A DNA stretch of 20,000 bases from an uncultured virus (IMG/VR IMGVR_UViG_3300033149_002562). Lineage: Duplodnaviria > Heunggongvirae > Uroviricota > Caudoviricetes. The notes below the pieces were generated by a model. It saw only the letters and a program-made list of their open reading frames with translations. It made no database searches and was not told the origin of the DNA. Where the stretch lies: IMG/VR virus record IMGVR_UViG_3300033149_002562; one strand, 5' to 3'. The position numbers and the translations under genes are program-made. Below are positions 937 through 19,345 of this stretch, piece by piece; within the stretch, counting starts at the first letter, position 1; the number at the start of each line of letters is the position of its first letter.

Positions 937-3153
937 TTACGCACCACCCGGAAGCGGTAGCGGCCCGGTGTCCATCACCGGTAGGCTAGTGCAGCGGCAG
1001 AAACATCGTTCTTGCGCCGGTAGCGAGTAATGACCTGGGTACGGAGCGGGATACCCCCCCACGTCAAAGTCCTGCGAAATGGGGATGGGGGGGCTGGCGT
1101 GCAGCCCCGCGTGAGTGTCTCGCGTGTAGCTGTCAAGCACGGCCTCCCACCGCTTGTGCGTCGCCACGCCGCTTGACTCCAACTCCAACAATTGAGCGTG
1201 ACCGCCAGCGTTCCAAGCTGCCGTAGACTCCGTGCGAGCTATGTTCATCAGACGAAACGTCGCGGTATCACCGCCGAATATGTCGTCGATCCGCGTGCCA
1301 AGCTGATAGCTGTTCTCGCCAGCCAGCAGCCCCTCACTAAGGCTATCGACCATCGCCTGCCTTGTCGTCTGCTGAATCTCGCCCCAGTACGGGCGGCTCA
1401 AAATCGTCTGTATCTCGGCCAGGATGGCGTCAATCACGTATTGCGGGAGCTGCGGCTGCTTGAGCCACGGTGTCGCTGAGCGATCTGTAAACGCGGCCAT
1501 CTGTACGGCCCCAAGTACAGCGGTCTCGACCATCACTGGGCGGAGCGCCGTAGCCCACCGCTCCGTCCAAGTCTCAGTTGGGAACACGGCATCGACCAGG
1601 CTTGACGCGTCGCGGCCCGTGGCCGACCGCAGACGATCCTTCACGTCGTCGCGCTGCTCGTCAAACAGCCGCTGAAGCACGCGGAGCATTGCCCGCTCCC
1701 GCTCGCCGTGTGATTTGAGCCAGACGGATTGCGTGTACGCCAGCCCCTTTGTCTTCGATTGAGCCGACTTGTCGCCGCCAGTCCGAACTGGCTGCGGCAT
1801 GACGTTCGCCGGAGTGAAGATCAGGTCACCGCCAGAATCCAGGTCCGGTAATCCAGCGAGCGATGGGATAATGTCACGAATCTCCTGTCGGCTTACGGCC
1901 GCGTATTTCGCAGCCATGCTTAGCTCGGAGATAGTCGTCAACCGGTCGTCGGGCTCGTAACTGTCCATCCACACGACCAGCCGCTCGCCGGGTCGCGCGA
2001 AATGCGGCGCGACGAACTTCGACATCATCTGCGACAACAATTCGACCTTCGGATTCACACAGAAGTCTGCAAAATGCTTGCGGGCCTCAGCGGCGCTCGC
2101 TCGATTCAGCCCTTCGATCTCGCCGATCACTGCCGGGTTCGTGCCGTAACCCTGAGTGATCCGAGCCTTCGTTGTGCGACCAGAATCGAGCCAATCCATT
2201 TCTCGCATCGTTCGCGTGATAGGCTTCGCGTCCCGAACGAGACGATCAAAGATCAGCGGGTGATTCGCGTTGTCAACGCTCCCGTACCACTGCATGATCC
2301 CGTCGTAAATCTCCTGCCGCTGCTCCTTTTCGAGTAGGGGCAGCTCTCCCTCCTCGCCTTCGCCAGATATGTCGCCGATGTAGATGCCAAGGCCAGGAAA
2401 AATGCCCTGACTGAATCCCTTGTGCTGCGCCTTCTGGATCGCCTCGTCCGAGAGAATTGCACGACTCTGAGCTTGGGTCGGGCCGTAGGCCGACAACGGA
2501 TTGCGAGGATCGACATAATAGAAGGGCGCGACCTCCTCGGGCGGCCGCTCGATTGGTGCGCCAGCTCCGCCTGGCGTAATAAGCCAGGAAGCGAAAGCCT
2601 TGTCCGCCGTATGCCTAGCTGTTACCCACGATGGCGGTAGCGGCCAAATCACTTGCCGCCCGTCGACTTTCGTTATCCACCAGTACGCCCACCCGCTCAA
2701 CTCCAATGAGGTGACGGTGAAGCAGAACAAATGCCAGCCGACCTGCATCGGGTTCGGGTCCGCCAGAGCGTCAAGTAACGGATGCGATTCGTACACCTCA
2801 ACGTTGTCGCTGACCGCCTTGACCAGTCCTGGCGCACGGCGATGCTCCGCCTTGGTCATCGGACGGCTAGCGGTCCCAGCGGACCGCTTGGTTGGCGTGG
2901 AACGCAACCGCCCGACGTGGATGGGCAGCCCAGCTATCGTCTGTGCAATCGGGCGAATCGAGGCGTAGGGCCAGCCGGAGTAGTGTGCTAGCTGGTCCCG
3001 ATCAGCGCCGCCGCTGCCGAATATCGACGGAGACGCGCCCGTGTAGACATGGGGCATCGCGGCCTCAGCCCCCACCTCGGCCTTCGCGGCAAGTTGAATC
3101 GCCATGCTGCGAGACCGGGCAGCCGTGTGGCAATCCACTAACATTGTGCTCAT
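937..3153 (-). CDS. Portal protein (HK97-like) fused to a Mu gpF / SPP1 gp7 head morphogenesis domain
   Basis: N-terminal portal motifs (YASIRPIAQTIAGLP, HPLLDALADPNPMQ, G.AYW, IWPLPPSWV, final EIR...GL..L..GGD). C-terminal gpF motifs (IARTEST.A.NAG, KRWEAVLDSYTRDTH, F.VGG...YPG...LPA.ERCFCRC). ATGA coupling to the upstream ORF; SD GGGAGG. Confidence 0.9.
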   Translation of the reverse strand: MSTMLVDCHTAARSRSMAIQLAAKAEVGAEAAMPHVYTGASPSIFGSGGADRDQLAHYSGWPYASIRPIAQTIAGLPIHVGRLRSTPTKRSAGTASRPMTKAEHRRAPGLVKAVSDNVEVYESHPLLDALADPNPMQVGWHLFCFTVTSLELSGWAYWWITKVDGRQVIWPLPPSWVTARHTADKAFASWLITPGGAGAPIERPPEEVAPFYYVDPRNPLSAYGPTQAQSRAILSDEAIQKAQHKGFSQGIFPGLGIYIGDISGEGEEGELPLLEKEQRQEIYDGIMQWYGSVDNANHPLIFDRLVRDAKPITRTMREMDWLDSGRTTKARITQGYGTNPAVIGEIEGLNRASAAEARKHFADFCVNPKVELLSQMMSKFVAPHFARPGERLVVWMDSYEPDDRLTTISELSMAAKYAAVSRQEIRDIIPSLAGLPDLDSGGDLIFTPANVMPQPVRTGGDKSAQSKTKGLAYTQSVWLKSHGERERAMLRVLQRLFDEQRDDVKDRLRSATGRDASSLVDAVFPTETWTERWATALRPVMVETAVLGAVQMAAFTDRSATPWLKQPQLPQYVIDAILAEIQTILSRPYWGEIQQTTRQAMVDSLSEGLLAGENSYQLGTRIDDIFGGDTATFRLMNIARTESTAAWNAGGHAQLLELESSGVATHKRWEAVLDSYTRDTHAGLHASPPIPISQDFDVGGYPAPYPGHYSLPAQERCFCRCTSLPVMDTGPLPLPGGA

Positions 3154-3510: not shown

Positions 3511-5301
3511 CTAAGCGCGACGAATCAACGGCCCTGCCCCAAATAGCCGCTCCGCAAGCGATTCTCTCCCCGCCTCCCGCCTTGCCTTCGCCTGCTTTTC
3601 AGTCTCGCCCGACGTGTAGATCAACGGGCGACCAGCCACCATGCCGTGGCGTCGCATCCGCCACAGAGCCAGGCAGAGCGCGTCGCTGCGGTCAGGCGAG
3701 TGACCGAGCATCTGCCGAAGGTTCATACCGCCTTTCTGCCCAGCCCGCTGGTCCTTGGGCGGCAGGTACATCCGCCCCTCACCGTCCGTCAATCGAGGGA
3801 TGCGAGATAGCTCGTCGATGAGCGCTTGCACCTCGGATCGCAGTCCGGCGTGGTCCGGTAAGGTGAACGCCCGTTGCCATCGCCGCCTACCGTCCGCCGT
3901 CTCAGCCGACACCCATCGCGTTGCCTCACGCGGCCCATTGGGATTCGACGAATCGACCAACTCCAAACCAGGATCGATCCATCGGGCGGCTTCGCCGTAC
4001 AGCGCGGCTCGCAGATTCTGGTATCGGCCTTTCAGCTTCGCGGGTAGCTTGCCGCCGAACCGCAATCCGCCGATACTCTTCAACTCTTTGCGAAGCGGGG
4101 CGACAATTGCGGACAACCCGCTCCCCGCCAAGTCCACCAATACGTTACGCCACGGCACATCCCATCGCTCTTGCATCTCGCGAGTGATATCCAGCAGCCT
4201 GCTCGTTTGCGGGATACCGTCCGAGTCCCGAGGGATGCCAGCACCGCTCAGCATCCGAATGTCAAGCAGCCCGATCCGATCCACCACCACCCAGGCGGCG
4301 TTGTCCGCCCCGCCCTCGAACGAGTCAATCCCCATGAATCGCGGGCACGACTTGCGAAACTCGGCGTCTACCATCGAGTGAGCCTCACGGGCGAACCGGA
4401 GCCACGCCTCGGGTACTATCACCTCCTCCTCTGTCCCTTGCGGCAGCACGCCATGCAGGCACGCCGACACCCAAAACGGCGGCTGCTCTTCTAACCGATG
4501 ACAGTAGCTCGGATAGGTCATCAGCCCAGGTAGTACTGGCTGCGGACACGGGCCCTTGCGGCCCGCCTTGTCCCACGCGAGCCCCAATGCAACGTTCGGC
4601 GTGCGGCGGCCGTCAATCCGAATCACGCGGCGACGATATTTGCCCGGTCTAAACTCGTCCGGTAACGACGGCGAGCGGATGATGTCGGCGTAATACCCCG
4701 ATAGCTTCAGCGGATTGCCGATGCAAAGGATGCGATGGGCTAGCCCTTCAATCGCACGGCACCGCTCTGAATCCACGCCGCTGCTTTCGTCGATCACGAC
4801 CAGCACAGATGGGTTGTCCTCGTCGCCTGGCAGGTGCGTGCCCATCATGTTCTCGACTTGCGTGACCGAGGCGAAACGAATCCAGTCGTCCTCGTAAGGC
4901 TTGCCGTCCGCCCCGATGCGACGGATAAGCAGGTGCTTTTTGTCCAGCCCGAGCGGGATTGCCGTCGTCCGCAACGCACGACCGAACTCCCCCCATATCG
5001 CCTGCTTTATCTGCCCGAGTGACGTAGACGTGACGACCACCTTGCACGGGAACCGGGTGCAATAGAACCACAACGCGGCCCGGGCCGCGATCCAGTCCTT
5101 GCCCGATTCGACGCACGACGACACCGCCGTCAAGTAGTTGTCGCGCACGGACAACAGAATGTCCCGCTGGCCCTCCCAGTAGCGAATGCCAGGCCACACG
5201 GCCGCCAGAAACGCTTCGGGATCGTCTCGCCAACGCTTTAGAATTGCTTGCGGAGCTGGGTCATTCTGCCGCGTCGCTGACGAGTCATTTGCCACCTCCA
5301 T
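3511..5301 (-). CDS. terL: Terminase large subunit
   Basis: Adenine-binding YWEGQ, Walker A variant SCVESGKD, Walker B VLVVIDES, motif C GNP, nuclease MGID...D and SPDRSDAL. Start refined to the ATG at 5301 (GGAG SD upstream), overlapping the end of TerS. Confidence 0.92.
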   Translation of the reverse strand: MEVANDSSATRQNDPAPQAILKRWRDDPEAFLAAVWPGIRYWEGQRDILLSVRDNYLTAVSSCVESGKDWIAARAALWFYCTRFPCKVVVTSTSLGQIKQAIWGEFGRALRTTAIPLGLDKKHLLIRRIGADGKPYEDDWIRFASVTQVENMMGTHLPGDEDNPSVLVVIDESSGVDSERCRAIEGLAHRILCIGNPLKLSGYYADIIRSPSLPDEFRPGKYRRRVIRIDGRRTPNVALGLAWDKAGRKGPCPQPVLPGLMTYPSYCHRLEEQPPFWVSACLHGVLPQGTEEEVIVPEAWLRFAREAHSMVDAEFRKSCPRFMGIDSFEGGADNAAWVVVDRIGLLDIRMLSGAGIPRDSDGIPQTSRLLDITREMQERWDVPWRNVLVDLAGSGLSAIVAPLRKELKSIGGLRFGGKLPAKLKGRYQNLRAALYGEAARWIDPGLELVDSSNPNGPREATRWVSAETADGRRRWQRAFTLPDHAGLRSEVQALIDELSRIPRLTDGEGRMYLPPKDQRAGQKGGMNLRQMLGHSPDRSDALCLALWRMRRHGMVAGRPLIYTSGETEKQAKARREAGRESLAERLFGAGPLIRRA

Positions 5302-8093: not shown

Positions 8094-8798
8094 ATGACTA
8101 GGCGATTTACCTTAGATGAGGTACTGGACTGGAATATATGCACGATATACGAACCGGAGAAGGTGTCTCGCCTCTTCGGGAGGCGAAAGTACATGACGGT
8201 CGAGCGGCTTCTGGCGCTCGACATTCCCGACAAGGACAAGCTCTGCTGTCTCTTGCGTGTCGAGGTAATCCCGGAGCCGGAGTTGCACGAACTGGGGTGC
8301 AAGTTTGCCGAGCGCGCGCTACGGCAGCAGCGCCGTGTCGGCGCAGAACCCGACTCGCGTAGCTGCAGCGCGATTGCAGTTATGCGGCGCTGGATAAGAG
8401 GCAAAGCATCGACTAACGAGTTGAAAGCCGCACGGACGGCGGCACGAGCGGCGACGTTCGCTGTCGCAAAACCACAATGGCCGCTGTGGATGGCACAAAA
8501 TGCCGTACAGGGAGCACGGATCGCGAGATCGATGGCGGCACGGGGCGCGGCAGCAGCGGCATTTGACGCGACGTTTACGGGGGTGAGGTGCGGGGCAGCA
8601 GTGTTCGGGGGAGCAATACGGGCGGCACAGGCGGCGATGTGGAGGAGATGGGCCGCGACGTGGATGGCAAAACCGTGGCTGTGGCAGGCACCCGAGGGAC
8701 TGTACGAAGGACGGGACAAGGGATTCATACGAGAGGTGCGCCTGCAACTCCGTCAAGCTGCTCGGGCAGCGGGAGGAACGAATTACCATGGGAGCTGA
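8094..8798 (+). CDS. Imm5-like domain protein with Ala-rich tail
   Basis: LHELGCKFAERAL...PDSRS..AI...RRWIRGKAS..EL.AAR pattern followed by an Ala/Arg/Trp low-complexity segment. Confidence 0.6.
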   Translation: MTRRFTLDEVLDWNICTIYEPEKVSRLFGRRKYMTVERLLALDIPDKDKLCCLLRVEVIPEPELHELGCKFAERALRQQRRVGAEPDSRSCSAIAVMRRWIRGKASTNELKAARTAARAATFAVAKPQWPLWMAQNAVQGARIARSMAARGAAAAAFDATFTGVRCGAAVFGGAIRAAQAAMWRRWAATWMAKPWLWQAPEGLYEGRDKGFIREVRLQLRQAARAAGGTNYHGS

Positions 8799-9297
8799 AG
8801 CCCGCGTTGAACTAGGTCGCATCAAGGACGGGCTGCACGCCCTCCGCGAGCAGGATCGGCACCGTTACGTCTTCGAGGTTGCGGAGCCCATCGCCGTTGT
8901 CTGGGCCTACGCCGTCCCGTTCGGCCGCACGGTGCGGTATACGACGTGGGAATTGGAGCTAGACGTAGCAATGGAGTTTGCTAGCGCTAAAGACGCCGAC
9001 GCCCTGCCCCTGTGCGCGACGGGTACGAACGAGCCTATGGGTGCCCTCGTCGTGGCTCGGCGGCGCTGGCTGGAGTGGCACGTCAGCGAAGTGTGGGACC
9101 GCTGGCAGAGCGGCCAGACGCCTGACGGCTCGCCCTTGGAGAAGCTGCTGACTCTATGGGACCGGATAGAACCGGGGACGTGGTGCGTGCGTGATTACCA
9201 CGAATCGGGCACCGGGATTGGGCGATGCGATGGATTGAGCTATCGGCCCCCGGAACTCGTGTTTTCTCACCGCGTAACGTGGAAGCTATGGACATAA
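8788..9297 (+). CDS. Hypothetical protein
   Basis: SD GGAGG; overlaps the previous stop; co-oriented. Confidence 0.6.
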   Translation: MGAEARVELGRIKDGLHALREQDRHRYVFEVAEPIAVVWAYAVPFGRTVRYTTWELELDVAMEFASAKDADALPLCATGTNEPMGALVVARRRWLEWHVSEVWDRWQSGQTPDGSPLEKLLTLWDRIEPGTWCVRDYHESGTGIGRCDGLSYRPPELVFSHRVTWKLWT

Positions 9298-9325
9298 CCG
9301 CCGACCGAAACCTCCTGCCGCGATA

Positions 9326-10486
9326 ATGACTGAGCTGCCCTCTTGCTACCGCTGCGGAAAGCAGCCCTGCGAGTGCGGGGACGGCGTGACGCTGTACTAC
9401 GCCGACTGCCGCGACGTGCTCGCCGCTATGCCGGAGTCATCGGTACATGCGATTGTGACCGACCCACCATACGGTCTCGCGTTCATGGGTAAGTCGTGGG
9501 ATGCGTCAATTCCGCAAGTCTGGAAGCCGCTTATGCGCGTCGCCAAGCCCGGCTGCCACCTATTGGCGTTCAGCGGCACCCGAACGTTTCACCGGTTGGC
9601 CTGCGCCCTGGAGGACGCCGGATGGGAAATCAGAGACTGCATCATGTGGGTGTACGGGTCGGGTTTCCCGAAATCGCTGGACGTGAGTAAGGCCATTGAT
9701 AAAGCCGACCCAGTCACGCCCGCCGCTCGGAAATGGCAGGGCTGGGGCACCGCCCTGAAGCCCGCGTGGGAGCCCATCATCGTTGCTCGCAAGCCGCTGG
9801 CCGGGACGGTGGCCGCCAACGTGCTGGAGCACGGTTGCGGCGCGCTAAACATCGACGGCTGCCGCGTGCCCGCAAACGGCGAGACGCCAAGCGCCGATCG
9901 ACGCGCCGCGGCAGCCAAGAGCGGCAAGGCCGGTTGCGATCTGCATTCTGCGATGCGCAAACGTAAGGACCAACCTCCGTGGAACAAAGACCTCGCTCAA
10001 TACACCGCGCCGCGCCCCGGCGAGCAGATCGGCCGTTGGCCCGCCAACCTGGTCCATGACGGCAGCCAAGAAGTCCTGGGGCTGTTTCCGCAAAGCGATC
10101 GCGGCAAGGCGAGGGTGATCAATCGCACCAGCGCCTCCGGAAACGGCGCGGTAGTCATGGGATTCCACGGCGTTGAAGGTCCGGCGGGCTTCGGCTTCGG
10201 CGACTCCGGCTCTGCCGCCCGGTTTTTCTACTGCGCTAAGGCATCCCGCGCCGAACGCGGCCACGGCAATACGCACCCAACCGTCAAACCGCTCGCGCTG
10301 ATGGACTGGCTCTGCCGTCTCGTCTCGCAGCCCGGCGGCCGCGGCGTCCTTTTGGACCCATTCGTTGGCTCCGGCTCCGCTTTACTCGTTGCTACTAAGT
10401 GGTTCGATCACGCCATTGGGATCGAACGTGAGGAGGAGTATTGCGCGATCACTGCCAACCGCCTGGGGCAGGAGATGCTGTTTTGA
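9326..10486 (+). CDS. DNA methyltransferase, N4-C/N6-A, beta class
   Basis: IVTDPPY (motif IV) N-terminal; HPTVKP; LDPFVGSGS (motif I) C-terminal; GFPKS and ARFFYCAKAS typical of phage orphan MTases. Confidence 0.93.
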   Translation: MTELPSCYRCGKQPCECGDGVTLYYADCRDVLAAMPESSVHAIVTDPPYGLAFMGKSWDASIPQVWKPLMRVAKPGCHLLAFSGTRTFHRLACALEDAGWEIRDCIMWVYGSGFPKSLDVSKAIDKADPVTPAARKWQGWGTALKPAWEPIIVARKPLAGTVAANVLEHGCGALNIDGCRVPANGETPSADRRAAAAKSGKAGCDLHSAMRKRKDQPPWNKDLAQYTAPRPGEQIGRWPANLVHDGSQEVLGLFPQSDRGKARVINRTSASGNGAVVMGFHGVEGPAGFGFGDSGSAARFFYCAKASRAERGHGNTHPTVKPLALMDWLCRLVSQPGGRGVLLDPFVGSGSALLVATKWFDHAIGIEREEEYCAITANRLGQEMLF

Positions 10487-12671: not shown

Positions 12672-13175
12672 TCATGGCAGTCGCAGGCGGCGATTACGCC
12701 GATACGTTTCAAGCACCGCCTGAGAAGAATACAGGTCCGGCAGATATGACTGGCGAAGCTCGGCGAGCCGCCGCCAATCGGTAGTCGCCTGATCGGTATG
12801 CCACTTGGCCCATAGCAGCAGGCCGAAGCGTTCGTCACGATCACGGGGCAGATCCGGCAGCCCGTCGGCCCACGAGGATGGAGCCCCCCCGTGCCCCAGC
12901 CACTCGTGGCACTCGACGCATAGCATGATAAGGTTGCACGATTCATCACTGCGACCCGCACCGCCGATGCCGTGCGCGAGGTGGTGTATCTCGCAGCGGA
13001 TCACCCGCTTGGATCGGCCGCACACCTGACAGTGATCCCAAAGGTAATGGAGCTCGACCAGAGTACCAGGCGACTTGATGGGCGGCCTGTGATACTGCCC
13101 GAGCGTAACCGCCGTCCGGTGATCGTCGAAAGCAAGTCGGCTGCGGTCAAGGAATGTGCCTCGCATAAGCCTCAC
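12672..13175 (-). CDS. HNH endonuclease
   Basis: CQVC...EIHH...GRSD...NLIMLCVECH; GTGA overlap with the csrA stop. Confidence 0.8.
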   Translation of the reverse strand: MRLMRGTFLDRSRLAFDDHRTAVTLGQYHRPPIKSPGTLVELHYLWDHCQVCGRSKRVIRCEIHHLAHGIGGAGRSDESCNLIMLCVECHEWLGHGGAPSSWADGLPDLPRDRDERFGLLLWAKWHTDQATTDWRRLAELRQSYLPDLYSSQAVLETYRRNRRLRLP

Positions 13176-13372
13176 TGCTTCTTCGACGATGACGGTGCTT
13201 CACACCCGTGTATTGCCTCGTACACTTCTCGGCGGTGAACCGGGACTTCGTTCGGAGCCTCGATCCCGAGTCGCACTTTGTCTCCTCGGATCGCAAGGAT
13301 GACAACGGTCACGGCCCGGTCACCCTCGTTTATGATGATCGACTCATTCTCTTTTCGTTGCAATACCAACAT
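13172..13372 (-). CDS. csrA: Carbon storage regulator CsrA/RsmA
   Basis: MLVLQRKENESIII...IRGDKVRLGIEAPNEVPVHRREVYEAI; SD AAGGAGG. Confidence 0.95.
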   Translation of the reverse strand: MLVLQRKENESIIINEGDRAVTVVILAIRGDKVRLGIEAPNEVPVHRREVYEAIHGCEAPSSSKKQ

Positions 13373-13749: not shown

Positions 13750-13760
13750 ATTATAGCACA
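13750..13760 (-). promoter_or_regulatory. Extended -10 promoter
   Basis: TGTGCTATAAT is a perfect TGnTATAAT; it overlaps the stop codon of 13751-14092. Confidence 0.7.
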
Positions 13761-14092
13761 ATCGCATGATACCAGTCGTTATCGCGGAGCCATCGTAACT
13801 CCGCGTCGATTGCGTCCGCTCGCCGCCTACATGGCCCGAGAATCACGGCGGCTACCAACATTCTGGCCTGCCATTCACAGGGCCATCGGCGAGTGAACGC
13901 TGCAAGCCAAGAGTCGTCTCGCACGCGACGACGGATCGCGTGAAATATCCACCGCAGCAGTCGATTGACCGGCTCGACGTGCGACACTCTCCGCTTCGTC
14001 GTCGTGCCGAGATCGTGCAACTCGTGAAGTTCGCCGCTGTCAATGAACTTCAGGCTACCGTCCGGCTCGACAGTGATGGTCAACTCGTGCAC
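13751..14092 (-). CDS. Conserved hypothetical protein of the DUF1257/DUF2997 module
   Basis: ITVEPDGS...LG....RRVSHVEP...W.A....LGP..RRADAIDAE..WL; GTG start with GGGGAG SD. Confidence 0.7.
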   Translation of the reverse strand: MHELTITVEPDGSLKFIDSGELHELHDLGTTTKRRVSHVEPVNRLLRWIFHAIRRRVRDDSWLAAFTRRWPCEWQARMLVAAVILGPCRRRADAIDAELRWLRDNDWYHAIVL

Positions 14093-14096
14093 GGAA

Positions 14097-14279
14097 CTAT
14101 CTCCCCTGTCGCACGTGAGCGTCCTGCCGATAATACTCCGGCGTCAAGCGGTCCTCTACGACCACGCCGAATGCTCGTTCAAGTTCGGCGGTCACGTCCT
14201 TACACGACCGTCCCGCGACGCCCTTGACCTCGATGATCGGGACGCCGTACTTGTCGATTGTGACTATGACCTGCTCCAT
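14097..14279 (-). CDS. DUF2997 family protein
   Basis: MEQVIVTIDKYG...IEVKGVAGRSCKDVTAELERAFG......TPEYY; SD AGGAG. Confidence 0.85.
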   Translation of the reverse strand: MEQVIVTIDKYGVPIIEVKGVAGRSCKDVTAELERAFGVVVEDRLTPEYYRQDAHVRQGR

Positions 14280-14307
14280 GTCTCGGTCTCCTATGCTTGT
14301 GATGATG

Positions 14308-14757
14308 CTACCGCACACAGCGGAGCTTTATCTGATGCGTCTGCGGATCATATTGCTCGCTGACACGCCACCCGCGACGCCGCATGGTCTTTTTCGTGAC
14401 TTCGGCCCCGTATTGCTGCCTCAGCCGCTCGCAACCGGAGCCGAGCAGCTTGCGGATACGCTGCCCCGGGCCATAAAAGTCGTAGATCGGGACGAGACGC
14501 CCCCTGTCGTCGCGAACCAAACCGATCTCATATTCGCAATCGGGCACGCGAATCGCATGTTCGCACTTGCCGTACTGTTCGGGCTTGATACCGTGATGGT
14601 AGGCAGCATCGGCCGCGTGATAGTCGTTCACCCATCGGCCGTACCATGCCCAGGTCTTCTGCGCTTCGCAGAACTCCAACCCGAGCTTTTCGCACGCCCG
14701 TTTGAGAGCGTCGATGTCTTTGACCTCTAGCTCACACTTGGCGACGTGGCTCATCAT
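14308..14757 (-). CDS. DUF1257 (Ycf35-like) protein
   Basis: MSHVAKCELEVKDIDALKRACEKLGLEF...YEIGL...YDFY...LRQQYGAE...GWRV; SD AGGAG. Confidence 0.85.
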   Translation of the reverse strand: MMSHVAKCELEVKDIDALKRACEKLGLEFCEAQKTWAWYGRWVNDYHAADAAYHHGIKPEQYGKCEHAIRVPDCEYEIGLVRDDRGRLVPIYDFYGPGQRIRKLLGSGCERLRQQYGAEVTKKTMRRRGWRVSEQYDPQTHQIKLRCVR

Positions 14758-14826: not shown

Positions 14827-15771
14827 CTATTCATCGTCGCCGAACGTGATCCGGCGGCTAGGCATCGCAGCGACCAACTCGGTGGCCTTGGCCTCTACCT
14901 CCGCAAGTGCCGCCCCAGCGACGGCCCGTAGATCGTCCTTGTTTTTCTTCAGCGCATCGTAATCGAAGCCGTCCATGACCTCCCGGGCCTTGACGACAAG
15001 CTGCTTCAGTTCGTCATCGTCAAGCACGTTGCGTTTATCGAACGTACTCAGAAACCGCTCTAGCCGCTCGTAGTTGCCTGGATGCAACTTCTTTCGCTTC
15101 CCATCCGCGTCCGGTGTCAATGCCCCGGTGAGCACCCCAAGCAGTTTGCCGAACGCAAACCGCAGCGCAGCTTTCACCTCGTGAGCTTCATTCTCCAAGT
15201 CTTTGCGAATGCGCTCTAAGTTGGCTTGGGCCACAACCGCCCCAACCTTACTCTCGCCAGGCGGCGTAAACTCGATAAGTCGCCTCTCGATCCAGAACTT
15301 CGACCGATATCGCTCGGGGGTGTCGTACACTGACGGATCGTACAACTCTCTGAGTGACTCCCGCTCGGCATCGGCCGAAAGTCGATTCTCGTACAGCACG
15401 GCAGCGGCGTCCGCGTGAGCCATCGCCTGCGACTCCACCTCGTCGAGTCGCTCGAATACCTCCTCGACGGACGTAACCGGAATCGCGTAGCGACCCGGCC
15501 CAAGCCGAAAGTCCACCGCAATGCAATCACGCAACCAACTCTTCGTTTCGATACGAAGCCGATTGTAAGCGTCGTGGTACTCGTTCTCGATGATTTTGCG
15601 GTTGGACCTGACTCGCGATTGATCGGCCTTCTGTTCATCATCGGTCGCCCCGACCCGGCGAACCTCCGCCTCGCCGGGCCGAAACGTGCGCCGCATTCCA
15701 GGCTGATGGAACGTCAGCTCCAAGATCACCGTGTTGTCTAGCAGCTTGTTGTTGTTGACGGCACTATTCAT
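14827..15771 (-). CDS. DUF3150-like protein
   Basis: G.YAIP...VEEV..RL...LYDPSVY...RSKF.IE pattern followed by a long helical region; start refined to MNSAV (SD AGGAG). Confidence 0.6.
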   Translation of the reverse strand: MNSAVNNNKLLDNTVILELTFHQPGMRRTFRPGEAEVRRVGATDDEQKADQSRVRSNRKIIENEYHDAYNRLRIETKSWLRDCIAVDFRLGPGRYAIPVTSVEEVFERLDEVESQAMAHADAAAVLYENRLSADAERESLRELYDPSVYDTPERYRSKFWIERRLIEFTPPGESKVGAVVAQANLERIRKDLENEAHEVKAALRFAFGKLLGVLTGALTPDADGKRKKLHPGNYERLERFLSTFDKRNVLDDDELKQLVVKAREVMDGFDYDALKKNKDDLRAVAGAALAEVEAKATELVAAMPSRRITFGDDE

Positions 15772-15840
15772 TCTCGTTTCTCCTGTGACAAGTGAAAACG
15801 AATGTGAAAACGAACTCGCCTCTTCTTTGTCAGAGGGCAA

Positions 15841-17391
15841 TCAGACAGCTACCGCTCGGCCGGTTCTTTGCATCGGCTGCCGATATACGCCAGGCTCCTG
15901 GGCTGAAAGGTACCGCCCGTCGGCCTGGCGACGCAATCGCTCGATCTCCTCGGCCTCAATCCTGGCCACGGGAATGATATACTTCGCCGCCTCCTTCAGC
16001 GAAATCTGCATCGTCCATGCTTTCTCGACGCACCGCCGCACGTTACGACCGACCCAACCGTCGTCCGCTCCGTCTGGCAACGAACCGATTACGTCTGGGT
16101 AACGGCTAAGCCACACCTGCCAGATAGCCTTCAACTCGTCCGGGCCAGGCAAATCGAAAAAGAACGTATCGACGAACCTAGACCGCATCGCGGCCGACAG
16201 GCCATCGACCGAGTTACTCGTCGCCATCCATACCGTCTCGTTGCCGCCTACGGCTTCGATCACCTTTAACGCCGTTCTGAGCGCTTGTTGCGATTCACCC
16301 ACAAGCGATCCCTGCATCGCGCCGAGGTCCAACCGAATCACGGTGCGGTCGAACTCTGCCGCACACGCTTTGCAATACGCCGATTTGCCAGCCCCCGGCA
16401 CGCCAAGAAGCATCACGCCGTACACGTCGTGATCTTCCATCCAGGTAAGCAGTTGGCCCTCCTGGTCTTGATTTACGCCGCTCGTGTCTTGACGCGCGGC
16501 TAAGCCCGTCTTCTCCACTTCATCTAGCCATACTAATAACCGAACCGGGCGGCGTCCGGCGATAATTCGCCTGCCATACTCTTTGATTGGCTCCAAGCCA
16601 CCGAGATCGGCGAATCGTTCACCACCGCGATAGACCGATAGCCCCCGCGTCTGCTCGATCACGGCCCGATTCGTCGCCCACAAATGGTCTAGGTCGATCC
16701 CCTTCGGCCGCAGGGCCATCGCCACTGCCTGCTCGGCTGCGAACGCTGACAGACCGGTGGTCGCCTCCACGGCCCCAGCCCGCTCAGCCTTCGTGAGCTT
16801 CTTTCGCTTCGACTGGCCGGTGCCACCGCACGACCCGCACTTCAGCCCGCTTTTAACGCCCTGACCGTCGCACTTGCCACACACACGCGCGGCCGCGTCC
16901 AATTCATCGATGATCTCGCCGAGCTGCTCAGCGTCCGGGTAAGGCTCGTCCAATACCACCACGTCGTCCTTAAGCTGCGGCGGCAGCTCGGCCGTGTGCC
17001 CTAGTAAGATCAGCAGCCGCCCGTCCGCCTTGAATTGGTCGCGGAGGTTGGCGATACCCTGCGTCACCATCGGGTCCGGCTTGCCGTCCCGGACAGTCAG
17101 CATATCGGCACCGTGCATGTACGCCACGGTACCCGGCGGCATCCTCACCGCCTCGACCAGAAAGCCCGGCGGCGAAAACGACTCATCAGTAAACTTCTGC
17201 GCAACAGTTTTGCCGCCTTCGTTGACTGGCCGAACGCCAGCTACGATGTCCCACTGAACCGCTGGAGCCTCCGCAAACGCCCCGTTCACGCCTCGGACCA
17301 ACGCCTGTGGGTCGGGCGTGGAAATCCAGATCAACGGAACGCCAGCGCGACGTGCGTGCTTCAATTGGTCCTTGAAAGTCATCACACTCAT
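15841..17391 (-). CDS. Ycf46-like AAA+ ATPase with rearranged Walker motifs and a DnaJ-type zinc finger insert
   Basis: Degenerate N-terminal P-loop domain (RAGVPLIWI.T.D; LPPQLKDD), FADLGGLEPIK, VWLDEVEK, GVPGAGKS, RLDLG...GSLVGES, MATSN, SRF..FFFDLP; start refined to 17391 (SD AGGAG). Confidence 0.9.
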   Translation of the reverse strand: MSVMTFKDQLKHARRAGVPLIWISTPDPQALVRGVNGAFAEAPAVQWDIVAGVRPVNEGGKTVAQKFTDESFSPPGFLVEAVRMPPGTVAYMHGADMLTVRDGKPDPMVTQGIANLRDQFKADGRLLILLGHTAELPPQLKDDVVVLDEPYPDAEQLGEIIDELDAAARVCGKCDGQGVKSGLKCGSCGGTGQSKRKKLTKAERAGAVEATTGLSAFAAEQAVAMALRPKGIDLDHLWATNRAVIEQTRGLSVYRGGERFADLGGLEPIKEYGRRIIAGRRPVRLLVWLDEVEKTGLAARQDTSGVNQDQEGQLLTWMEDHDVYGVMLLGVPGAGKSAYCKACAAEFDRTVIRLDLGAMQGSLVGESQQALRTALKVIEAVGGNETVWMATSNSVDGLSAAMRSRFVDTFFFDLPGPDELKAIWQVWLSRYPDVIGSLPDGADDGWVGRNVRRCVEKAWTMQISLKEAAKYIIPVARIEAEEIERLRRQADGRYLSAQEPGVYRQPMQRTGRAVAV

Positions 17392-17416
17392 CTTCGTTTC
17401 TCCTATAGTCAAGATT

Positions 17417-17758
17417 CTATCGCAATCCGCGCCGCGGACTAATGCGAGCAACCTTCTTCACGACTTTCAGTTCAACGACACCCCAATCCGGTGGCCCCGC
17501 TCTATACAACCGAATCGTTCCCGGCTGCAATTCGTCGTCGGACTCCAACGGCTCGTAATCAAGCAGCAGGTACCAGCCGTGGTCTCTCACGTTGGTAACC
17601 CTTGCCACAAATCGCCGCGGTTCCGCATCGGGCGTAACCTCTAACACCGCGACATGATCGAGCGGCCCAACGCGAGTGTGATAGCTCTCGGCAGGACGGA
17701 TGCCCATATCCCGGAGCTGCCGATTACGAATCTGACGGCTAGTTTTGGTCGCAATCAT
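17417..17758 (-). CDS. Hypothetical protein
   Basis: SD AAGGAG; ATGA coupling with the upstream ORF. Confidence 0.65.
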   Translation of the reverse strand: MIATKTSRQIRNRQLRDMGIRPAESYHTRVGPLDHVAVLEVTPDAEPRRFVARVTNVRDHGWYLLLDYEPLESDDELQPGTIRLYRAGPPDWGVVELKVVKKVARISPRRGLR

Positions 17759-17978: not shown

Positions 17979-18666
17979 TCATCGGATCACACCCACGCCA
18001 GGTGGATCGGTCCAACCCGCGGGCAGCTTGGCACCGAAGAGGTAGAGCCACCGCCCGACCTTTCCGACGCGGAATCCTTCTGGCAACTTGCTGCTGCGAA
18101 GATCGAGGTAACCACCTACGTTACCGATGCGGGAGCCCCTGGGCAGCTTGCAGCCGCGTAGATTGAGGTCGCCCCCCACGTCGCCGACGCAAAAGCCGCC
18201 GGAGGGTTTGCAGCCGCCAAGGTAAAGTGAGTCGCGTACATTACCGATGCGAAAGCCCGCGGGCAACTTGGCACGGGTGAGGTAGAGCGATCCGCCCACG
18301 TTCCCGATACGGAAGCCGGCAGGCAGATCGCAGTACGAAAGGTAAAGTGATCCGTTTACGTTCCCGATGCGAAACCCCTCAGGCAGCTTACAACGGTGAC
18401 AATCGAGGGAACCGCCGGAGTGTTTCAGAATCAACTTCAGTTGTGCCGCGGTTGACTCTTTCACGCGCCACCAGCGCAGGACTCGCACTCGCCGGTGACA
18501 ACGAACCCCGGGCACGCCACTTTTGCAGTAGGGTTTGTCAGTCGCGGTCTCGATCTCCGCAACGACGGGCCCCGTCCCGGCAGCGTACAGCCCGCCGGTT
18601 ACTGCAATGTAGGCTCCGTTGCCCGGCACGTCCTGCCAACTGGAGTAGCTTCAGTCCGATCATCAT
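17979..18666 (-). pseudogene. 20-aa-repeat (LRR-like) solenoid protein, copy A, apparently frameshifted at the 5' end
   Basis: Six full LPxGFRIGNVxGxLxLxxxK repeats. The SD-led ATG at 18666 is one base out of frame with the body, whose frame is closed upstream by TGA at 18651-18653. Confidence 0.55.
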
Positions 18667-18715: not shown

Positions 18716-19288
18716 TTATGCCTGTACCATCCTGGCGAGCGGCAAACATGGACAAAACGTCCACCGCGGGTCTTGGAGCAACGTAAGCACTACGTCGCTT
18801 GCGTCGAGGCCCGCCGACCACACCTCGATAGTCACGTGGTCGAATACCGTACCCGGCCCGCCGCCGTCACGATCAACGATCAATTCGGGCCAGTGATCAT
18901 CAATAATCTGCTCGGCAATCGACTGCCACGCGTTCGGTACCTGGAGTAACACGCGGTCGTAATCCGCTGTGAGCCGCTCGGCGAAGTGCCACCCCGCATC
19001 CCATGCCTGTGCGTCCGCGGGATCGAGGTCAGCCTGCACCTGGCCGTAGTATTCGTCAGGAGTAAACCACTGTAGGTCGTCGCGCCGCTCGGGCGACAGG
19101 TATGGGTTGTCTGTATATAACAATCCCTCAGCGTGAGCCTCCTGCCCCTCACTGAACCACCAGGCGTAATTCGCCTCGGATTCAATATACTTCGGGTCAA
19201 GACTGCCCGGCTTGCCGCTCTTGGCGTCGGCATAAGCAGCCTTGATCTCTTCGCCCGTCCACGGGCGTTTCGCGTAGTGACTACTCAT
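18716..19288 (-). CDS. Hypothetical protein with an Rmf/CrpP-like motif
   Basis: WFSEGQEAHAEG....DNPY ... AQAWDAGW; SD AAGGAG. Confidence 0.6.
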   Translation of the reverse strand: MSSHYAKRPWTGEEIKAAYADAKSGKPGSLDPKYIESEANYAWWFSEGQEAHAEGLLYTDNPYLSPERRDDLQWFTPDEYYGQVQADLDPADAQAWDAGWHFAERLTADYDRVLLQVPNAWQSIAEQIIDDHWPELIVDRDGGGPGTVFDHVTIEVWSAGLDASDVVLTLLQDPRWTFCPCLPLARMVQA

Positions 19289-19345
19289 TTTCGTCTCTCC
19301 TTTGCGTTAAGGTTTACCCGGAACCGCCGGGTGCGATCAAAACGG

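Follow-up and report, generated by a model that had tools for sequence, protein, structure and literature searches.

An ATPase gene with Walker B encoded ahead of Walker A

The window examined in this study is a 20,000-nucleotide stretch of DNA from an uncultured virus of the Caudoviricetes (IMG/VR record IMGVR_UViG_3300033149_002562). On its minus strand, at positions 15841..17391, lies a gene for a two-module AAA ATPase of 516 amino acids (aa), in which the blocks carrying the two Walker motifs are swapped along the chain. The open reading frame (ORF) spans 15841..17451 (-) and is open up to a TTG at 17451; the ATG at 17391, with the word AGGAGAAACGA upstream by eight bases, is likely the start of the gene. 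A database copy, P0002, is an identical protein of the same length (516 aa), and its numbering is used here for the residues of the ATPase. PF00004 matched the protein in two stretches (48.2 bits versus a cut-off of 21.2; E 1.9e-12), and the best match covered only profile positions 1-53 of 131. phrog_8638 matched in four stretches (E 2.5e-40). NCBIfam models gave only sub-threshold matches (IteA, CDC48, and PAN; E 0.002-0.01), and no Ycf46-specific model of NCBIfam or Pfam matched.

The ATPase core, all of it on the minus strand, is preceded by helix alpha0 with an FxDxGGLxxxK motif (residues 260-277; 16561..16614), in which G264, G265, and K270 are invariant. Next comes the moved block (residues 285-322; 16426..16539), which was delimited by the block profile and the structural model described below and consists of the Walker B strand, a DxSGV loop at the position of pore loop 2, and the following helix. 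Its Walker B pair, Asp290-Glu291 (LLVWLDE; 16519..16524), is invariant in an alignment of 18 proteins. The block is followed by beta1, the P-loop, alpha1, beta2, pore loop 1, and alpha2 (residues 323-384; 16240..16425), the part of the chain matched by PF00004 positions 1-53 and by VAT and p97. It contains the Walker A P-loop GVPGAGKS (residues 330-337; 16381..16404; G330, G333, and K336 invariant) and pore loop 1, SLVGES (16291..16308). The sensor-1 strand, the Arg helix, and beta5 (16156..16239) carry sensor-1 Asn393 (16213..16215) and Arg403/Arg405 (16177..16185), and N393 and R405 are invariant. The C-terminal helical lid (residues 413-495; 15907..16155), assigned from model helices 417-490 and the alignment with the p97 D2 lid, is followed by a tail with R-x-V-x-V.

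An earlier note on this DNA, made from the letters alone, had read the chain in the order FADLGGL, LLVWLDEVEK...DTSGV...GQLLTWMED, GVMLLGVPGAGKS, RLDLG..GSLVGESQQALRTALKVIEAV, VWMATSN, and SRF, and had placed the Asp-Glu pair at 16519-16524 and the P-loop at 16381-16404. The translation matches this order exactly, and both positions are right. Its claim that Walker B lies ahead of Walker A with sensor 1 after both is borne out in the window and in the relatives, and homologues with the same order were found, for example at all 80 IMG/VR loci described below. In the window protein, Walker B lies 40 residues ahead of the P-loop, and sensor 1 comes directly after the helix following GES; ordinary AAA proteins have the Walker B block some 54 residues behind the P-loop.

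The same order was found in 18/18 rows of the alignment, whose D290, E291, G330, G333, K336, N393, and R405 are invariant and which is otherwise just 40-57% identical. A word-indexed search in which 8000 candidates were scored gave 507 proteins at E <= 1e-3, and the best 120 of these showed 39-57% identity to the query over the BLASTP-aligned part. Among 262 database relatives, the order was recognized as permuted in 237 by a regular expression and in a further 19 by eye; the remaining 6 carry inteins, and 4 of those also show the block before the P-loop. A scan of IMG/VR yielded 279 pattern matches, 150 of which encode a relative, and the best 80 were kept. At these 80 loci, a strict regular expression found the order in 63 and reading by eye in all 80; the P-loop expression matched in 80/80, and the Walker B pair was DE in 76 and EE in 4. 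Normal order was seen in none of the 262 database relatives and none of the 80 IMG/VR relatives. An exhaustive profile search against 1.84 billion cluster representatives produced 24223 hits at E 1e-3 and 3083 at E 1e-30, normal-order relatives included. The top 150 representatives (150th, E 2.6e-159) align with the permuted profile over its whole length, in a single stretch save for those in which an intein or other large insert divides the match into two. gp103 of Tunturi_3, a cultured Tunturiibacter phage, has the same permuted order at 34% identity. The chain order Walker A, Walker B, sensor 1 was seen in no family member examined. Judged from these sequences, the permuted order is far beyond chance. 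That it could be an artefact of assembly or gene calling in the window contig is refuted and retains virtually no probability, because the same order is kept across many contigs, namely 80/80 independent IMG/VR contigs, four contigs of metagenome-assembled genomes (MAGs), cultured phage Tunturi_3 (gp103), and the 150 best cluster representatives (collinear with the permuted profile in one stretch or in two around an insert), and misassembly is thereby ruled out. Among sequencing runs, one DNA run contained 0.05 of the sampled words, and no RNA run was listed for them.

Relocation, modelled fold, and origin of the Walker B unit

The block was compared with relatives of normal motif order. A 47-column profile of the block matched 193 of 196 normal-order relatives (best-domain independent E value [i-E] <= 1e-3; median 3.1e-12), and the match began 53-56 residues past the start of the P-loop in all 183 of those with a recognisable P-loop. 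In the other 10 of the 193, the P-loop carries an intein. Since block-profile positions 6-43 were matched, the moved unit corresponds to the 38 residues 285-322 (window 16426-16539). Alignment of the permuted with the normal-order proteins by hhalign (probability 100; E 2.2e-45; 451 columns) was collinear throughout except for the Walker B block, which appears as an insertion between alpha2 and sensor 1 in the normal-order proteins; the usual Walker B place is empty in the permuted proteins. The alpha0 motif aligns with the same motif in the normal-order relatives. On either side of the core, alpha0 and the lid keep their places, and just two internal blocks are exchanged. Circular permutation, in which the old termini are joined and new ones opened inside the domain, was considered and rejected, as alpha0 and the lid stay in place.

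Comparison with solved AAA proteins gave non-collinear matches. Against D2 of VAT (5vc7), positions 300-355 of the family profile aligned with chain residues 321-376 (P-loop to GES), positions 256-307 with residues 376-429 (Walker B and the helix), and positions 363-434 with residues 425-501 (sensor 1 to lid; the ATN...R..GRFD region). The same pattern was obtained with D1 of VAT and with 5g4g, 5g4f, and 6chs; the Walker B pieces of these matches are individually weak (conditional E 2.8e-6 to 5e-4). Short acidic motifs behind hydrophobic strands are common, and the N-terminal hhhhDE block might be an independent look-alike of Walker B. However, 38 positions are similar, from the strand through the DxSGV loop to the LLTWMQD helix; the Walker B regions of 193/196 normal-order relatives are matched with a median i-E of 3.1e-12; and nothing is found at the normal Walker B place in the permuted proteins. 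A look-alike is therefore extremely unlikely.

An AlphaFold2 model was built from the 18-row alignment (mean predicted local distance difference test score [pLDDT] 87.8; predicted template modelling score 0.78). The ATPase module was modelled with five strands, residues 285-289 (Walker B), 324-330 (beta1), 350-354 (beta2), 386-392 (sensor 1), and 406-412 (beta5), and with helices 306-320, 336-346, 366-382, and 400-405 followed by the helical lid. The strand of the block has a pLDDT of about 90 and its helix (306-320) about 88. Within model residues 250-494, the ATPase module superposed on p97 D2 (8vls_A) with Z 17.0 and a root mean square deviation (rmsd) of 2.9 Å over 203 aligned residues. 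Some 42 residues were left unaligned to 8vls_A; this is roughly the size of the block and is expected if a sequential aligner skips a block that has moved.

The whole model (residues 3-515) superposed on the D1-D2 part of p97 (7lmz_C, chain residues 209-775) with Z 17.6 and an rmsd of 6.9 over 407 aligned residues. Sequence identity to the p97/Cdc48 structural matches was 14-20%. From this whole-model match to p97/Cdc48 D1-D2, the N-terminal 245 residues (16657..17391 [-]) are taken to be a degenerate D1-like tier. In the p97 superposition and the collinear hhalign alignment, this module is an AAA-like alpha/beta domain with a lid, and it has neither a P-loop nor a Walker B motif. Its lid carries a zinc-ribbon insert recognized by its sequence motif, CxxCxGxG-X-CxxCxGxG (residues 171-192; 16816..16881 [-]). 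This DnaJ-type double CxxCxGxG insert is present in 8 of the 18 aligned relatives and absent in the others, and its match to DnaJ_CXXCXGXG is weak (E 0.22).

Mean-field direct-coupling analysis was carried out on 328 family members (effective number of sequences [Neff] 246; 243 columns; 28240 pairs). The top couplings between strands were Walker B-sensor 1 at rank 20 (287-388), beta1-beta5 at rank 26, beta2-Walker B at rank 44 (288-353), and beta1-sensor 1 at rank 57, and 8/8 strand-strand couplings among the top 100 fell in the four neighbour pairs of a 5-1-4-3-2 sheet. Between Walker B and sensor 1, 8 pairs among the top 250, D290-T391 included, line up as a parallel ladder. According to the model and the couplings, the relocated strand probably takes the place it has in the normal fold, flanked by the sensor-1 strand and beta2. 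The proposal of the earlier note that the beta3-alpha3 unit was shifted ahead of beta1 without loss of catalytic residues thus finds support in the alignments, the block profile, the model, and the couplings.

To our knowledge, the AAA+ core has always been described with one fixed chain order, and all other known AAA proteins have the normal one; for this reason, we regard the permuted order as the derived state, a polarity that is inferred. A maximum-likelihood tree was calculated for 43 permuted proteins (P0002 plus one in six of the members 470-600 aa long) and 37 normal-order proteins (one in three of the members 500-660 aa long), using 428 columns that are filled on both sides and leaving out the columns of the block itself. 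A single branch separated the two orders (Shimodaira-Hasegawa-like approximate likelihood ratio test, 100), so that one change suffices, a number as low as which was reached in 0/500 label shuffles. The tree suggests a single event in which the permuted order emerged from two-module phage AAA ATPases of normal order. A duplication intermediate, with Walker B on both sides of the P-loop, was found neither by a regular expression in the sets of 262, 120, and 80 sequences nor by a looser motif and reading by eye at the 80 IMG/VR loci. The route may have been duplication followed by loss or illegitimate recombination. Among contigs sampled as one genome per species, 287 pattern matches were obtained, 174 of which encode relatives. 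The best 80 of these were classified as 4 permuted, 73 normal-order, and 3 of neither class; the four permuted MAG contigs are from Pyrinomonadaceae, Nitrospira (two), and Opitutaceae.

The five-gene module and its surroundings

The ATPase gene heads a co-directional module of five genes, which encode the AAA protein, a DUF3150-family protein, a DUF1257 protein, a DUF2997 protein, and a small protein. The first partner gene, of the DUF3150 family, lies at 14827..15771 (-); its ORF is open to 15840, and AGGAGAAACGA precedes the ATG at 15771. A homologue on the same strand was found at 74 of the 80 IMG/VR loci, and 70 of them start less than 4 kb downstream. PF11348 matched 18/28 homologues of this partner, but not the window's own copy. 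Its structural model (pLDDT 83.3) matched a viral DUF3150 protein in BFVD (E 1.6e-10), and against the PDB it retrieved only generic helical bundles (best Z 9.3), below the level that is meaningful for helical proteins. The second partner, a DUF1257 (Ycf35-like) protein (14308..14757 [-]), was assigned through PF06868, which matched 16/26 homologues (best 2.9e-9) and gave E 0.13 with the window's own copy. The third is a 73-aa ORF (14097..14318 [-]) with a DUF2997 domain at residues 18-63 (PF11211; E 2.7e-12; 46.8 bits versus a cut-off of 24.1). The fourth, a small conserved protein (13751..14092 [-]), has a homologue by blastp at 25/80 loci, and Pfam matched 0/22 of its members.

Genes of this module also occur next to ATPases of normal order. 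The profile of the small protein matched genes beside the normal-order ATPases of phages RHph_I4 and L338C as well as a gene of Tunturi_3. In RHph_I4, the normal-order ATPase gene is followed by a gene for a hypothetical protein, annotated DUF1257 and DUF2997 genes, and the match to the small-protein profile; in Tunturi_3, DUF3150, DUF1257, and small-protein genes lie near gp103. As module genes stand beside both types of ATPase, both chain orders appear to serve the same module. gp96 of Tunturi_3 (8702-9661), deposited as 'HNH endonuclease', matched the DUF3150-family profile with E 4.4e-77, and judging from this match the deposited name is probably wrong.

The ATPase (15844-15885) and the DUF3150 protein (14830-14871) have a C-terminal peptide of the form R-x-[ILVM]-x-[ILVMFY] in common. 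It occurs within the last 14 residues of 43/80 ATPases and 54/74 DUF3150 partners, compared with 330/4093 background ORFs, 2/36 DUF1257 proteins, and 1/25 small proteins. In the DUF3150 partner, the peptide is often trailed by acidic residues.

The ribosome-site-like word AGGAGAAACGA precedes the ATPase gene at 17394-17404 (-) and the DUF3150 gene at 15774-15784 (-). With one mismatch, it is also found at 19291-19301 (-), before a 190-aa ORF (18716-19288), and a fourth match lies at 4869-4879 (+); these are 4 matches in the window versus 0.32 expected. Just downstream of the module is a gene for a 66-aa CsrA homologue (13172-13372 [-]; PF02599, E 8.6e-22). A 216-aa ORF (17979-18629 [-]) consists of repeats of about 20 residues of the form KLPxGFRIGNVGGSLYL and has no Pfam or PHROG match.

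The window as a whole is phage DNA, with a prohead protease/major head gene, a portal gene with Mu-F, and genes for a large terminase, an N6/N4 methylase, a DUF5131 protein, and an HNH protein. The portal is fused to a Mu-F-like head morphogenesis domain (937-3153 [-]), and the ORF that runs off the window start (1-600 [-]) matches both prohead protease and major head protein families.

Proposed mechanism and comparison with known systems

We propose that the gene encodes a working classic-type AAA ATPase of a tailed phage whose core is naturally, and non-circularly, permuted. The 38-residue unit of beta3 (Walker B), the pore-loop-2 position, and alpha3 would be encoded between alpha0 and beta1 and not between alpha2 and beta4. 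In three dimensions, the core has most likely stayed the same, with sheet order 5-1-4-3-2 and the Asp-Glu pair beside sensor 1 and the P-loop, and three connections would be rewired: alpha0 to beta3, alpha3 to beta1, and alpha2 to beta4. The protein would form a p97-like ring of two tiers, a structural degenerate D1-like tier and an active permuted tier. Its site of ATP hydrolysis would comprise the P-loop, D290/E291, and N393, with Arg405 contributed by the adjacent subunit. Acting with the four partners, the pore loops SLVGES and DxSGV would pull, unfold, or remodel a protein substrate. ATPase activity, ring formation, and substrate remodelling by the permuted protein are presumed by analogy with related AAA proteins. 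We consider this explanation as a whole, that is, an active AAA protein with a permuted core, a kept fold, two tiers, a single origin, and a five-gene module, to be likely.

Several results weigh against this explanation. The loop of the block (residues 291-310) has a pLDDT of just 65-70. Control couplings calculated from 167 normal-order proteins (Neff 113) were noisy: 2 of 4 strand couplings in the control top 100 joined non-neighbours (beta2-sensor 1 at rank 28 and sensor 1-beta5 at rank 34), and the control showed a ladder for Walker B/sensor 1 only, with 3 pairs in the top 250. Because the control is noisy, single couplings are weak evidence, and it is the ladder that we count as support. 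The predicted location of the Asp-Glu pair beside the nucleotide rests on the secondary structure and confidence of the model and on the couplings, and couplings cannot separate contacts within a chain from those between chains. EE replaces DE at 4/80 IMG/VR loci. The tree, an unrooted one, came from a quick search on two sets gathered by separate profile searches, and intermediate lineages may be unsampled.

The blindness of couplings to intra- versus inter-chain contacts would also suit a domain-swapped ring, in which the strand and helix that were moved would fill in the core of the adjacent subunit; being at the N-terminal edge of its module, this unit would meet the least steric hindrance to a swap. 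However, the linker between the block helix (306-320) and beta1 (324-330) has only 3 residues (321-323) in the model and ties this helix to the P-loop strand of the same chain; the monomer is modelled with confidence in cis; and for rewiring in cis it is enough to link strands that lie side by side in the sheet. We therefore regard a domain swap as very unlikely.

It might also be supposed that the family is a catalytically dead scaffold, which lost hydrolysis on rewiring and keeps its motifs for nucleotide binding or folding only. In most members, pore loop 1 has Leu in place of the aromatic residue (SLVGES), which together with the EE loci would fit such a scaffold; Leu at this pore-loop position occurs in p97 D1. 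Against it, the Walker A Lys, the Walker B Asp-Glu, the sensor-1 Asn, and Arg405 are invariant among 18 rows of 40-57% identity, and both the P-loop and sensor 1 are sites of intein insertion. Such elements tend to settle where functional constraint is strong. P-loop inteins of the form GVPG/C...HN/[CS]GKS were seen in P0040, P0041, P0089, and P0092, and P0225 and P0259 have the same splice junction, HN/C or HN/S, just before the P-loop lysine; sensor-1 inteins, AT/...HN/CNS (at ATCN), were seen in P0125 and P0257. P-loop inteins also occur in the normal-order family. A dead scaffold is thus very unlikely, and the active, fold-retaining permuted ATPase is preferred.

The helix following Walker B carries an inter-subunit signalling position in classic AAA proteins. 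It is conceivable, though we hold it to be doubtful, that the swap is not neutral and that the 3-residue link would alter signalling from the nucleotide to the pore loops or the neighbouring subunit. The protein would then be a distinct AAA motor within a five-protein machine and would share a C-terminal R-x-[IV]-x-[FL] docking or recognition tag with its DUF3150 partner.

Full-text literature searches, outside which subscription journals largely fell, turned up neither an AAA+ protein described as having Walker B ahead of Walker A nor an account of the five-gene phage module. Passages in PMC7824862 and PMC10853773 deal with permuted methylases, not ATPases. A large natural family in which two core blocks are exchanged and the catalytic residues kept would indicate that the AAA+ fold tolerates rewiring. 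With permuted and normal-order sisters in one module, there is a natural comparison of the effect of connectivity on folding, on hydrolysis, and on coupling between the nucleotide site and the pore loops. Collinear profiles detect half of a permuted domain, so such proteins are expected to be under-described in annotation. The module of AAA, DUF3150, DUF1257, DUF2997, and small-protein genes is itself widespread in phages.

The normal-order phage relatives include RcTiptonus gp60 (Rhodobacter), Corndog gp96 (Mycobacterium), L338C_050, RHph_I4 EVC24_084 (Rhizobium), and JP1_048 (Agrobacterium); the Joint Genome Institute names relatives 'SpoVK/Ycf46/Vps4 family AAA+-type ATPase'. These ATPases have the degenerate N-terminal module, the FxDxGGLxxxK helix, the P-loop block, sensor 1, the Arg helix, and the lid in common with the window protein, and their genes too are followed by DUF1257, DUF2997, and small-protein genes. 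In contrast, their Walker B block lies 53-56 residues after the start of the P-loop, compared with 40 before it here, and the protein encoded after them (212-266 aa) gave no match to the DUF3150-family profile at E 1e-3. Ycf46 has the normal motif order. Another close system is that of cyanobacterial and plastid Ycf46 with Ycf35 (DUF1257) and DUF2997: according to a passage in PMC4284462 ('Cluster g'), genes for DUF1257 and DUF2997 are found together in cyanobacteria, and they are so in the phage module too.

p97/VCP, Cdc48, and VAT are the best two-tier structural matches of the window protein, and the best sequence match in the PDB is 5vc7_A (profile E 1.5e-25). In those proteins, each tier binds ATP and keeps the normal order, whereas here tier 1 has no P-loop and tier 2 is permuted, and the N-terminal substrate-adaptor domain of the p97 type is not common to the window protein. 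The GTPases of the YlqF/YjeQ type, which are circularly permuted with the motif order G4-G1-G3, are a precedent for a P-loop nucleoside triphosphatase with an unusual motif order and a kept fold. Their rearrangement is a circular permutation, whereas in the phage protein the chain ends stay and two neighbouring internal blocks of the AAA+ core are exchanged.

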